IMG/VR virus record: IMGVR_UViG_2537561946_000006
DNA from: a virus
Lineage: Duplodnaviria > Heunggongvirae > Uroviricota > Caudoviricetes
DNA: 64,000 nt
Strand: one strand, 5' to 3'
In this document: piece after piece, positions 15,001 to 21,000 of the stretch
Numbering within the stretch: position 1 is the stretch's first letter
How the letters are laid out: each line of letters opens with the position of its first letter
Made by a program: the position numbers

Positions 15001-18000
15001 TTGTGTCATTTATAACCTGAATCAGGGGAGGCCGGAATGTTATCTGGCATTTTTAGCAGAGCCTGAATGCCATAATCACGGCTCCCGGAGTTGGCCGTCA
15101 GTGGGTGACACTGGCGGTTTTTTTGTTTTTCTTTACTTTCATTTTCTGTCGGCGGTGACGGAGACATACATCAGATGGAAAAAATCACAACGGGTGTGTC
15201 ATACACCACGTCAGCGGTGGGGACGGGATACTGGTTACTGCAGCTGCTGGACAAAGTCTCTCCGTCCCAGTGGGTGGCAATCGGTGTGCTGGGGAGTCTG
15301 CTGTTTGGCCTGCTGACGTATCTGACTAACCTTTATTTCAAGATTAAAGAAGATAAGCGTAAGGTGGCGCGGGGAGAGTAGTCGATGAATAAACAATACG
15401 AACTGGTTGTAAAATGAATATTTCTAACTGAAAAAACGTTCCATGAGGTAAGAAAAGGTCACAGGCAATCAATAACAGGACGTGATGAAAGACCCTTGCA
15501 TTTGTGCGCTTTCTCTTTAGATAGCAGCAGATACTGAAAATCTGAGTTGTCGGGGAGTCAGGGATACAGCTGTGCAAGAGTTGGTCATTGTGATTCCATT
15601 GAAATCCTGTATGCCATGAAGGGCAGGATTTTATGGCTACCTGAGCTTTGGTGATAGTAAGTTGAAAATTCGCATTTTTTGCTGACATGCGTAACGAGAA
15701 TCCCATAAGCAGGGAGGACTTAATTCTTCATTAACCCATGCGTTGATATTATGTTTCAGCCGTTGAAGCATCAGCGGTGTTAATGTTGTGGTAATAATAT
15801 CCAGCGTTTTATGTGAGATCTTACCGTAAGGGTCTGCAAGAATGCTGCTTGTTGCTTCGTTATTATCTGCCATCAGAAGAAGTAACTCTGATTTAACGTT
15901 TTCTGTCATTAGTTGTAAAAATCTTCTGCGCAAACTTTCTTTACTGTTCATTTATATGGCTTCATTTGTTGTAATCTGCTGCGTCTCAAGGGATATGTTT
16001 ATGAGAGCGACCATGAGTGTTGGATTATATACCTAACATATCAAGGGATTAGAAATCGATAAATCCCCATGAACGAAAAAATAAAATACGGCCTGTCGGC
16101 TGCCGTTCTGGCGCTGATTGGTGCAGGTGCTTCTGCGCCTGAAATCCTCGACCAGTTTCTGGATGAAAAGGAAGGTAACCACACCACGGCATACCGTGAT
16201 GGTGCGGGGATCTGGACCATCTGCCGTGGTGCCATTCTGGTGGATGGTAAGCCTGTTATTCCTGGCATGAAGCTGTCAAAGGAAAAATGCGACCGGGTTA
16301 ATGCCATCGAACGTGACAAGGCTCTGGCATGGGTGGAGAAAAACATCCGGGTGCCGCTGACCGAACCCCAGAAAGCGGGGATCGCGTCATTCTGTCCGTA
16401 CAACATTGGCCCCGGTAAGTGCTTCCCGTCGACGTTTTATAAACGAATTAATGCAGGCGATCGAAAAGGTGCCTGTGAGGCGATTCGCTGGTGGATTAAG
16501 GACGGTGGCAGAGACTGCCGTATCCGTTCAAATAATTGCTACGGTCAGGTCTCACGGCGTGACCAGGAGAGCGCGCTGGCGTGCTGGGACATCGACAGAT
16601 AGCAGAATATTTTCCTGAAAAATGACGTTGGCCAACGCGGGTGGATAACACGAAATCCTGAAAACTGGTAAAACCTAAGTGAATAAAAGTAAAAACCCCG
16701 TTTGTTGGCAGCAAGCGGGGTTTTGTGTTTTCTGACCTTGAGTAAGGCAAGGGAGAAATTATGGGTAGGGAGGTACTTTCCCTGTGAGGAAGTATAAAAG
16801 ATTCTTTCTGAGGTTGTCCATTATGAAAGGCATTGAAGTGGAGACGCCAGCCAGTCTGGATTTAACAAGAGCGGCAGCTTTTGCCATTCGTATTGTGGCC
16901 ATTGCTGTTCTGGTCTGGGCAATCCGTTGGTGGTGATATGAACCGTGTTCTGTGCGTGGTTATCATTGTCCTGCTGGTGGCCTGTGGTGCGCTTAGTCTG
17001 GGGCTGAATCATTACCGTGATCACGCCATCATCTACAAAGAGCAGCGCGATAAAAAAGCCAGTGAGCTGGAGCTGGCGAACGCGACAATTACTGATATGC
17101 AGATACGCCAGCGTGATGTCGCTGCACTTGATGCCAGATACTCGAGGGAATTAGCCGATGCGAGAGCTGAAAATGAAACTCTGCGTGCTGATGTTGCCGC
17201 TGGTCGTAAGCGCCTGCGGATCAACGCCACCTGCTCCGGTACCGTGCGTGAAGCCACCGGCACCTCCGGCGTGGATAATGCAACCGGCCCCCGACTGGCA
17301 GACACCGCTGAACGGGATTATTTCATCCTCAGAGAACGGCTGATGGCAATGCAGAAGCAACTGGAAGGAGCACAGGAATATATCCGTACCCAGTGTATAC
17401 CGTGATGTTTTGTTATGAAGGTGTTACTGGTAACGTTAAGGTAATTTAACAAAGAGTCAGTTCCGGACTTTATAGTGTGCTCAGTTCATGGCCAAAAACG
17501 ATTTCTGTGATAAATATTTTGAATATTATTTACAGGTAAATGGAGTGGGGCACATGGATAGAAATATTACAATAGAGAATGAAGTATATGCCCGTATTGT
17601 ATGGGCAGAGAAGGCAAAAACACGGTAATTCCGTGTGTTGCCATGATACCTGATTGGCAGAATAGTTGTTTGGTTTTGAGTATATAGTCAGCGTTTTTTG
17701 TTCAGTAATTGCTCCCTCAAAAAATAATAAAATAAGGTGATTATTTTTGTTTATTATTTAGTTTTTTTTGTGTGTTGTTTTATTGTTTTTGCGTGGCTTG
17801 TTTTTTATTGTTATTTCATTAAGGGAAGGTAAATTCAGGATGGCAGTCTGTAGATAATCGGAGGTCACTTATGCTACATGATCACGTGGCAGAATGTCTG
17901 GAGAAAAAAGGACTGTACCGGAGAGCAGCTGAACGATGGGCAAAAGTGATGGTACAGCTAAGTGATGACCAGAAAAGAAAAGTGGCGGCACAGAAACGAG

Positions 18001-21000
18001 CAGAGTGTTTGCGTAAGGCGCGCCGGACTCCGGTTTCACCGGTGAACCTGACCGAAATAAAACAAGCGGTCAACAGACTACATTCTGAGTTGGGAATGGG
18101 ATTTGAAGAGCGGCGGGTATTCCGACGATATAAAGGGACAGGAGAACAGAATACGTCCGGAAACGCGCGGTCAAAAAAATGCTAAAAAATATCTGAGAGA
18201 GTTATTGCCTGTTACCATAAGAAAAAGCGACTTTAGTGGTCGCTTTTTGTGTCATATATAAGTCGTTTAAGTAAACCTGTCTGAACAGGTGCTCTGGTCG
18301 TGTTTGTCTTTGTTGGGTACAAATTGAGAATATTTTTCATTAATTAATCTTCTTCTGCAGGCTTCAATAACCCACGCTGAAAAATTACCTGAACCTTTCA
18401 GGTCAAGAGCGATGTTAATTTGTTCAATTATCTGGTTTGGAAATCGGATGTTGCGGGTTGTTGTTCTGCGGGTTCTGTTCTTTGATGACATAATGTTGCC
18501 CCGTATTCAGTGTTGCTGATTTGTATTATCTGAAGTTGCTTTTACGCTAATTTGATGCAGATCAATTAATACGATACCTGCGTAATAATTGATTATTTCT
18601 CGTGGTTTGATGGCGTACACACATGTCGTGATAAACCTCATGTAGATGATAATTATTATCATTTTCGTGGGTCCTTTCCGGCGATCCGACAGGTTACGGG
18701 GCGGCGACCTCGCGGGTTTTCGCTATTTATGAAAATTTTCCGGGATCCATGTCCGGTTTCTCTTCAAGTTAACTATATGAAAAATATAAAAACAGGTCTT
18801 CTGTGAACCGGACATGAACAAAAAACAGACATGTAAACCGGACATGACCGGTTTTGTTGTGATTGTGAGGTGAGAGTTTTTGCGAGGTGAGGAGTGGCTA
18901 CGCAGACTGAAGTTGCCAGGCATTTAAGTCTGACCGATCGCCAGCTTCGTAGATTGCAGAAATTGCCGGGTGCCCCGATATCGAATAAGCGAGGGCAACT
19001 GGATCTGGATGCCTGGCGCGATTTTTACATATCGTATCTGAGGAGAAGTAAAAACGATGTGCCTGATGGCGATAGCGAAGACGACTATGAGGAGAAATTG
19101 CTTATTGCCAGATGGGAACTGACAGCAGAACAGGCTGTTACACAGCAGTTAAAAAATGAGGTGTCAAAAGGAAAACTTATTGACACCGGGTTCTGTATTT
19201 TTGCCCTCAGTAAGCTGGCAATGGCGTTATCCAGTACGCTTGATTCCATCCCTTTATCCATGCAGCGACAGTTTCCTGATTTAACACCGCGCCATCTTGA
19301 CCATCTGAAAACCCTTATTGCTAAGGGGGCAAATCAGTGTGCGCGGGCAGGGGATAAATTACCGGATTTACTCGATGAATATATCAGAGCTACAACTGAA
19401 TAATATGATGGCTGCCGTTTCGGTTGCGCTGCAGCCTCTGGTCAGGGTTGTACCAATGACGGCAGTTGAATGGGCTGATCAAAATTATTATCTGCCGAAA
19501 GAATCTTCATATGGTGAGGGAGAATGGAAAACGCTGCCATTCCAGATCGCCATTATGAACTGTATGGGTAACGACCAGGTTCGCACGGTTAACCTGATTA
19601 AATCTGCCCGTGTTGGCTATACAAAGATGTTGCTGGGGGTGGTCGGGTATTTTATTGAGCATAAATCCCGAAACAGTCTGCTTTTTCAGCCCACGGATTC
19701 TGCCGCTGAAGATTTTATGAAGTCTCACGTGGAGGCGACGATTCGGAACGTGCCATGCCTGAAAGACCTTTCCCCATGGCTGGGTCGTAAACATCGTGAC
19801 AATACTCTCACGCTGAAACGCTTTTCATCGGGCGTCGGTTTCTGGTGCCTGGGCGGTGCAGCCGCCAAAAACTACCGTGAAAAATCCGTGGACGTGGTCT
19901 GCTATGACGAGCTTTCCTCGTTCGAGCCGGATGTCGAAAAAGAGGGCTCGCCAACCCTGCTGGGGGATAAGCGTATTGAGGGCTCTGTATGGCCAAAATC
20001 CATTCGCGGCTCGACGCCTAAAATCAAAGGTACCTGCCAGATCGAAAAAGCGGCCAACGAGTCGGCGCATTTCATGCGTTTCTATGTGCCCTGCCCGCAC
20101 TGTGGGGAGGCGCAGTATCTGAAATTTGGCGATGAATCCACGCCTTTTGGCCTTAAATGGGAGAAGGACAGCCCCGAAAGCGTTTTCTACCTCTGTGAAC
20201 ATCATGGCTGCGTGATCCATCAGTCTGAGCTTGACCAGAGTAACGGGCGCTGGATCTGTGAAAACACGGGTATGTGGACCCGTGACGGCCTGATGTTTTT
20301 CAGCGCCCGGGGGGATGAAATTCCGCCGCCGCGCTCCATCACGTTCCATATCTGGACGGCGTACAGTCCGTTCACCACCTGGATACAGATAGTCTATGAC
20401 TGGCTGGATGCACTGAAAGATCCCAACGGCCTGAAAACCTTTGTGAACACCACGCTGGGCGAGACCTGGGAAGAGGCCGTGGGCGAAAAACTCGATCACC
20501 AGGTACTGATGGATAAGGTGGTGCGTTACACGGCGGCGGTGCCTGCCCGGGTGGTTTATCTGACGGCGGGCATTGACTCGCAGCGAAACCGTTTTGAGAT
20601 GTATGTCTGGGGATGGGCACCGGGAGAGGAAGCCTTTCTGGTGGATAAAATCATCATTATGGGCCGTCCCGATGAGGAAGAGACGCTGTTACGTGTGGAT
20701 GCGGCGATCAACAAAAAATACTGCCATGCAGACGGAACCGAAATGACCATTTCCCGTGTCTGCTGGGACACCGGGGGGATCGATGGTGAAATTGTCTATC
20801 AGAGGTCAAAAAAACACGGTGTTTTCCGGGTGCTGCCGGTAAAAGGCGCATCTGTCTATGGCAAGCCGGTGATCACCATGCCGAAAACCCGCAATCAGCG
20901 GGGCGTGTATCTGTGTGAAGTGGGGACGGACACCGCAAAAGAAATTCTCTATGCCCGTATGAAAGCCGATCCCACTCCTGCGGATGAAGCCACGTCGTAT

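Follow-up and report, generated by a model that had tools for sequence, protein, structure and literature searches.

A lambdoid prophage with a pchA cassette between its spanin genes and cos

The window analysed here, a 64,000-nt prophage stretch with a mean GC content of 49.8% (IMG/VR record IMGVR_UViG_2537561946_000006), carries in its late region, between the spanin genes and cos, a short segment (17406-18491) that we are very confident in reading as holding a cassette of the 'moron' type built around pchA. This gene encodes a PerC-family activator that would regulate the enterocyte effacement locus (LEE) and associated effectors in the manner published for PchA. The bounds proposed in the first-pass annotation proved exact, with the spanin gene Rz ending at 17405 and a convergent gene of the DUF3950 family extending to 18491. 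The cassette holds no new biology, since publications already cover the protein, its control region, where it lies in the prophage and its association with prophages that bear effectors; divergence of the control region among copies is the sole mildly interesting feature of the cassette. The value of the result lies in annotation: the window can be assigned to an E. coli of the enterohaemorrhagic (EHEC) or enteropathogenic (EPEC) type, and its activator gene can be named precisely as a pchA allele. Pch, which turns on the LEE-encoded machinery for gut attachment in EHEC and EPEC, is one of the master switches of attaching-and-effacing virulence, and its presence marks the prophage as part of the LEE regulatory network.

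The open reading frame (ORF) at 17871..18185 (+), preceded by the Shine-Dalgarno sequence GGAGG at 17860-17864, encodes 104 amino acids and matches the PerC family PF06069 over profile positions 1-89 of 90 (E=3.8e-44; 149.3 bits, cut-off 22.6), so that the PerC family membership on which the proposal of a PerC/Pch-like activator hinged is borne out over the full length. The protein is identical at 104/104 positions to PchA (ECs_1091) of prophage Sp4 in E. coli O157:H7 Sakai, and UniRef gives the exact sequence the name 'PchABC family transcriptional regulator'. The coding DNA is likewise identical to Sakai pchA, from which the window departs at two positions in the 465 bp upstream and at one in the 3' flank; the Sakai gene, too, lies downstream of Rz/Rz1 in a lambda-like prophage with effector cargo. 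Among the window copy, pchB and pchC, the coding sequence varies only at nucleotides 16, 172 and 183 (window positions 17886, 18042 and 18053), the very positions that distinguish pchA, pchB and pchC (PMC5931665). As the window carries the pchA state at each of them, the gene is, on sequence grounds, a group 1 Pch (PchABC) and by allele pchA.

PerC itself, encoded by the perABC operon of EPEC adherence factor (EAF)-type plasmids, belongs to the same Pfam family and is about 47% identical to PchA. The figure (47.1% over residues 2-88) was obtained with an 89-amino-acid ORF on an IncF plasmid, taken as PerC by its context, namely the AraC-type perA-like and perB-like ORFs that precede it. Both PerC and Pch activate the LEE1 promoter (PMC4764244, PMC5931665), and LEE expression depends more strictly on Pch in EHEC than on PerC in EPEC (PMC4764244). 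The genetic settings differ, however: PerC is an 89-residue, plasmid-borne protein encoded by the third gene of an operon behind AraC-type PerA, whereas the pch gene stands alone in a prophage and is served by an AT-rich control region of its own.

On its left the cassette is bounded by the backbone gene Rz (i-spanin, 16938..17405, +; PF03245, E=8.4e-49), whose product shares 66% amino acid identity with lambda Rz and within which Rz1 (o-spanin, 17158..17343; PF06085, E=1.7e-21) is embedded; a lysozyme gene (16069..16602) lies upstream of Rz. To the right follow the DUF3950 gene (18267..18491, -), the 12-nt lambda cohesive-end sequence cosN, read directly as GGGCGGCGACCT at 18699..18710 (+), and the right backbone flank formed by the small terminase gene (18894..19403, +; PF07471), with the large terminase gene downstream of it. 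The pch insert measures ~0.93 kb (~17406..18332) and its right junction falls inside the backbone DUF3950 gene. With a GC content of 38.8% against the 49.8% of the window, the insert has the features of a moron, an additional gene that forms a unit of its own within the phage backbone: it sits between backbone genes (Rz and the cos-adjacent ORF), deviates in composition and carries its own terminator, the promoter being known from the literature.

The location had been described as the lambda bor position. In lambda, bor, p78 and p79 occupy the same slot, 3' of Rz/Rz1 and 5' of a conserved 64-amino-acid ORF and cos, and are likewise accessory cargo expressed from the prophage. The description thus holds for the slot between Rz and cos but not for orientation, since bor lies on the opposite strand and pch on that of the late operon; the insert is also shorter here (~0.93 kb, compared with ~1.7 kb in lambda). 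No similarity to Bor, p78 or p79 was detected anywhere in the 64-kb window, for which reason we rejected the idea that pch replaced bor and left a detectable remnant. Given that these genes have no counterpart in the window and that lambda homology restarts at 18333, the insert is read as taking the place of the whole lambda bor-p78-p79 block.

Upstream of pchA, the AT-rich and T-tract-rich DNA noted at first pass as spanning about 460 bp amounts to 465 bp (17406..17870, +) with 33.5% GC and eight T-tracts of 4-8 nt, and is the segment presumed to hold the pchA promoter and regulatory DNA, the existence of such a promoter being known from the literature. Its last 242 bp (17629-17870) contain 31.8% GC and 45.5% T; no other 242-bp segment in the 64 kb has as high a T content, and only 2.4% of such segments are as GC-poor. 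An Rfam scan of 16500-19000 with E values up to 1 returned two sub-threshold, chance-level matches, both outside the cassette, which therefore contains no known small RNA or leader. Within the upstream DNA, a 46-amino-acid ORF (17488..17628, +) belonging to phrog_2157, a family of unknown function whose source records carry only the name 'hypothetical', was considered as a gene and set aside as unlikely: compared with the pchC-linked copy it shows seven nonsynonymous and two synonymous differences, a ratio of nonsynonymous to synonymous change (pN/pS) of ~0.8, and the prokaryotic genome annotation pipeline PGAP makes no call there in an identical locus. Just after this ORF, a hairpin at 17620-17636 (ACACGG-5 nt-CCGTGT) is followed by a T-run on the - strand only, which makes it terminator-like for a leftward transcript, and the cassette has no - strand gene upstream of the hairpin; it may be a relic or a stop for antisense transcription arising in the AT-rich region. 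Separately, the pch leader (17820..17870) contains three GGA motifs, AAGGGAAGG, CAGGATGG and CGGAGG, the last being the Shine-Dalgarno sequence, with a spacing that resembles CsrA-type binding sites.

Downstream of pchA, the 81-bp spacer that separates it from the convergent DUF3950 gene contains a symmetric hairpin (18222..18248; A5-GCGAC-7nt-GTCGC-T5) readable on both strands, 36 nt past the pch stop codon and 18 nt past that of the convergent gene. Its 10-nt arms, at 18222-18231 (AAAAAGCGAC) and 18239-18248 (GTCGCTTTTT), are 100% complementary around a 7-nt loop, and the structure folds with a trailing U-run on each strand (-17.3 and -12.3 kcal/mol; z scores -2.3 and -2.7). These properties agree with the bidirectional terminator suggested at first pass, and we assign the hairpin as a predicted bidirectional intrinsic terminator common to both convergent genes. 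A consensus terminator scanner made no call at 18222-18248; the G+C-rich core is only 5 bp long, and our guess is that the A/T flanks, being able to pair, were counted into the stem.

Studies already published on the identical protein indicate what the cassette would do. PchA targets AT-rich DNA covered by H-NS, chiefly at the LEE1 promoter, where it displaces H-NS, StpA and Hha and de-represses ler; Pch activates the LEE1 promoter only when these three proteins silence it, lowers H-NS occupancy both in vivo and in a reconstituted complex, and together with Ler raises the other LEE promoters (PMC4764244). In a K-12 reporter strain, PchA increased ler::lacZ expression from 1,577 to 9,087 Miller units (PMC5931665), and PchA, along with PchB and PchC, is needed for LEE expression (PMC4764244, PMC5931665). 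Pch proteins bind LEE genes as well as non-LEE effector genes, and pchA is itself controlled by LrhA and, in response to butyrate, by Lrp/LeuO (PMC4456613); the pchA promoter has also served elsewhere to sense butyrate. Sulfamethoxazole-trimethoprim, an antibiotic that triggers the SOS response and prophage induction, likewise induces the group 1 pch genes (PMC5931665). The link to co-resident effectors that had been surmised for this prophage is thus supported and was already in print (PMC3355084, PMC4456613, PMC4764244), the co-ordination of prophage effectors with the LEE by PchA/B having been stated explicitly (PMC3355084).

By analogy with the experiments on its identical counterpart, the window PchA would activate LEE1 and ler. 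The AT-rich DNA ahead of the gene, which would carry the regulated promoter, may itself be silenced by H-NS in the lysogen. Once produced, PchA would displace H-NS, StpA and Hha at LEE1 and so de-repress ler, whereupon Ler and Pch would switch on the other LEE operons along with many effector genes carried on prophages. The hairpin would end the pch transcript and insulate pch from the convergent transcript of the ylcI-like DUF3950 gene. Upon induction, late transcription antiterminated by Q would read through pch, given that the gene follows the lysis genes and has the orientation of the late operon.

Several points weigh against this reading. The promoter and transcription start of pchA were not located, the promoter scan having given a single sigma-70-like match (17638-17666) within chance expectation, and we only infer that H-NS occupies the upstream DNA and that late-operon transcripts read through pch. 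In strain PA20, reads resolved by single-nucleotide polymorphisms assign the antibiotic induction to pchC and not to pchA (PMC5931665). Moreover, nothing in the window demonstrates a LEE in the host, whose presence is deduced from the pathotypes of cassette-bearing genomes and the effectors aboard the prophage, and two of the four effector genes on the prophage are fragments.

The small convergent gene bears on how far the cassette extends, since the first-pass annotation had listed pch and this gene together. Its 74-amino-acid product belongs to the YlcI/YnfO family (PF13132, DUF3950, E=1.3e-17, 63.8 bits against a cut-off of 25; NF041551, 34.5 bits against 30). The phage lambda genome NC_001416 encodes, at 48109..48303 (-), an unannotated 64-amino-acid homologue (PF13132, E=1.9e-20) with 89% identity to residues 1-53 of the 74-amino-acid protein; the lambda reference record has nothing annotated between p79 and cos despite this intact ORF. 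At the nucleotide level, window positions 18357-18700 are ~89% identical to the lambda right end, the alignment ending in GGTTACG, and the homology detected with tblastn is limited to 18491..18333, that is, codons 1-53. Over these codons the comparison with lambda gives a pN/pS of 0.15, indicative of a real gene under purifying selection. As lambda, which lacks pch, has the homologue at an equal distance from cos, the gene is best assigned to the lambda backbone and not to the pch cargo, its 3' end having been rewritten by the insertion; it is accordingly no component of the pch module. The C-terminal 21 residues (54-74), with the tail INEKYSQFVPNKDKHDQSTCSDRFT, are specified by DNA of the insert. 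Family members hardly vary over their N-terminal ~50 residues but have unrelated tails: YlcI (DLP12), YnfO (Qin prophage of K-12) and the lambda ORF have the N-terminal ~50 residues, the cos-side position and the orientation in common with the gene in the window, and residues 54-74 are unrelated to the tails of all three.

The strongest competitor, though a very improbable one, is that pch and the 74-amino-acid gene constitute one functional module, for example an activator with an antagonist or autoregulator of the ribbon-helix-helix (RHH) type, transferred together. Both genes converge on one terminator, and the variant with the tail INEKYSQFVPNKDKHDQSTCSDRFT adjoins pchA-type, pchB and pchC cassettes alike, the identical tail being found beside pchB and pchC in Sakai. 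The equivalent pair in prophage DLP12 of K-12, ybcW-ylcI, reportedly forms a convergent excludon, in which the transcripts of the two genes overlap (PMC12288877), from which it follows that ylcI is transcribed in K-12. The first 53 codons are nevertheless backbone sequence with a counterpart in the pch-free lambda, and the names YlcI and YnfO themselves come from K-12 prophage genes. K-12 is not known to have pchABC. The common tail is more simply explained as one ancestral insertion junction spread by recombination through the flanking homology, and we found no published function for any DUF3950/YlcI-YnfO member.

Nor did the RHH label given to the small gene at first pass find confirmation, although the gene itself is real and convergent with pchA, as its match to PF13132 and its pN/pS of 0.15 indicate. 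The protein does contain a pattern of RHH type (basic residues and N-I-R-F-P ahead of a first helix, then a G-S-G loop leading to the second helix, N-F-S-A-W-V-I-E-A-C), two monomer structure predictions modelled an extended N-terminus followed by two helices, and there is a weak match to the HicB-like phrog_497 (E=0.0099). However, Pfam assigns the 74-amino-acid protein to DUF3950 only; when 24 diverse members of the family were scanned against Pfam, one distant homologue touched RHH_6 at E=0.092; sequence and profile searches of the PDB gave no match; an hhalign comparison with P22 Arc returned a probability of 2%; and three fold searches with the models yielded no significant match, RHH proteins being scattered among the non-significant viral hits. 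An RHH fold is plausible but unproven. It is unlikely, in our estimation, that the DUF3950 gene encodes an Arc-like DNA-binding protein acting at cos or on the cargo between Rz and cos and that pch regulation is coupled to it.

Distant DUF3950 relatives were sought exhaustively with a profile, and only 191 cluster representatives reached E <= 0.001; some of these, apparently lambda right ends laden with errors, were set aside. Many apparent relatives seem to be such frameshifted copies, located on European Nucleotide Archive contigs of ~3.4-3.6 kb, one of them labelled Staphylococcus aureus; these ~3.5-kb contigs are probably lambda control DNA from long-read runs, which inflates the apparent diversity of the family. 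Two true distant members occur in uninformative contexts, one on a 2-kb contig and the other in a non-phage setting next to genes for a TonB receptor and CopC. In addition, one distant DUF3950 protein of 120 residues carries a C-terminal terminase small-subunit domain (PF03592, E=1.6e-11), which hints at a link between DUF3950 and DNA packaging, unless this single protein is a gene-calling artefact.

The remaining alternative, that the PerC-family gene serves the phage as an activator or is a non-LEE paralogue of the PchD, PchE or YfdN type with little effect on ler, is scarcely credible and appears largely refuted by the identity of the protein to PchA, a proven ler activator, even though PerC-family proteins populate several PHROG families labelled 'transcriptional activator' and the group 2/3 paralogues PchD and PchE barely activate ler (PMC5931665); furthermore, pch lies outside the phage regulatory region and, among 50,697 phage records, the cassette turned up solely in two unannotated fragments derived from an O157:H7 strain.

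The pchA cassette accordingly belongs to resident prophages and not to sequenced free phages, as these phage records attest. The 638-bp unit comprising control region, gene and terminator was found in 673 of 5,426 complete E. coli genomes, where the copy number has a median of three and a maximum of five, and was at least 99% identical in 660 records, from strains of O157:H7, O55:H7, O145:H28, O103:H2 and O111. RefSeq annotates the gene pair as 'PerC family transcriptional regulator' and 'YlcI/YnfO family protein'. At pchB (Sp11) and pchC (Sp14) of Sakai the genes follow one another as they do here, from Rz through pch and the ylcI-like gene to the small terminase gene. All three Sakai pch prophages also bear effector genes: Sp4 has a tccP2 pseudogene, Sp11 has nleG genes, and Sp14 has espJ and tccP. 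Sp4, which harbours pchA itself, departs from this order: comparison of Sp4 record positions 22131..27389 with window positions 14854..19156 revealed that the segment matching 14854..18348 of the window, which runs from the holin gene to pchA, lies in inverted orientation between copies of IS629 and ISEc8 and abuts IS629, the ylcI-like gene being cut at the point that matches window position 18348. The window thus keeps the unrearranged order of a locus that IS629 has disturbed in the Sakai reference.

Among the three Sakai pch copies, the segment corresponding to 17629-17870 is the most diverged part, differing from pchB by 17% and from pchC by 6.6%, whereas the adjacent coding sequence differs by ~1% or less (1-3 positions). 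This contrast suggests either recombination or selection on the regulatory DNA of the paralogues. A lesser and unlikely possibility is that the control regions, diverged by 7-17%, result from promoters having been swapped, so that each pch copy would answer to a different input. The divergence is in keeping with the published finding that LrhA regulates PchA and PchB differently (PMC4456613).

Beyond the tail-fibre genes, the prophage does carry effectors, as had been recognized from the outset, although two of the four are incomplete. The gene at 41167..42147 (+) encodes a full-length NleB-family arginine glycosyltransferase (PF24688, E=3.3e-181; NF011909, 697 bits against a cut-off of 595), and NleF (PF16809) is encoded at 43755..44324 (+). 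Between them lie an NleC fragment (42181..42471, +), which retains the first 96 codons and covers positions 1-64 of the 251 in PF13678, and an NleH fragment (42865..43440, +), which matches positions 28-216 of the 304 in NF041316 below the cut-off; nleC and nleH are therefore likely pseudogenes beside intact nleB-family and nleF genes. Just past the effectors, at 45673..46425 (+), lies a gene for a 250-residue AraC-family regulator, nearest to YdeO/GadX, although its 147 bits fall short of the equivalog cut-off; it may be a prophage regulator of the Psr type acting in the acid-resistance/LEE network. It is followed by an IS3-type fragment (46467..46832) and a second integrase gene (47240..48400), so that its membership of the same prophage is uncertain.

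On the cos side, the motif AACCGGACATG has four matches in the window, compared with 0.62 expected, and three of them fall at 18748..18846, between cosN and the small terminase gene, one inverted and two direct and 30 bp apart. The small terminase subunit, annotated as 'terminase small subunit' at the counterpart of 18894..19403 in an identical locus, matches the Nu1-like family PF07471 (E=1e-18) over residues 49-150 only and has a different N-terminal DNA-binding part; the repeats are probably the cosB-type sites bound by a terminase with a DNA-binding domain unlike that of lambda Nu1.

Elsewhere in the window, no stx genes were found between the tRNA genes (11544..11796) and a SASA-family esterase gene (12877..14727). 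The tRNA genes comprise a Met-type one with a CAT anticodon, annotated as Ile in related records, and Arg-TCT, and a gene for an adenine DNA methyltransferase (10445..11494, +) lies just upstream of them. Finally, the window contains genes for an IS481-family transposase (6150..7223, -) and a RacR-type repressor (166..642, -).

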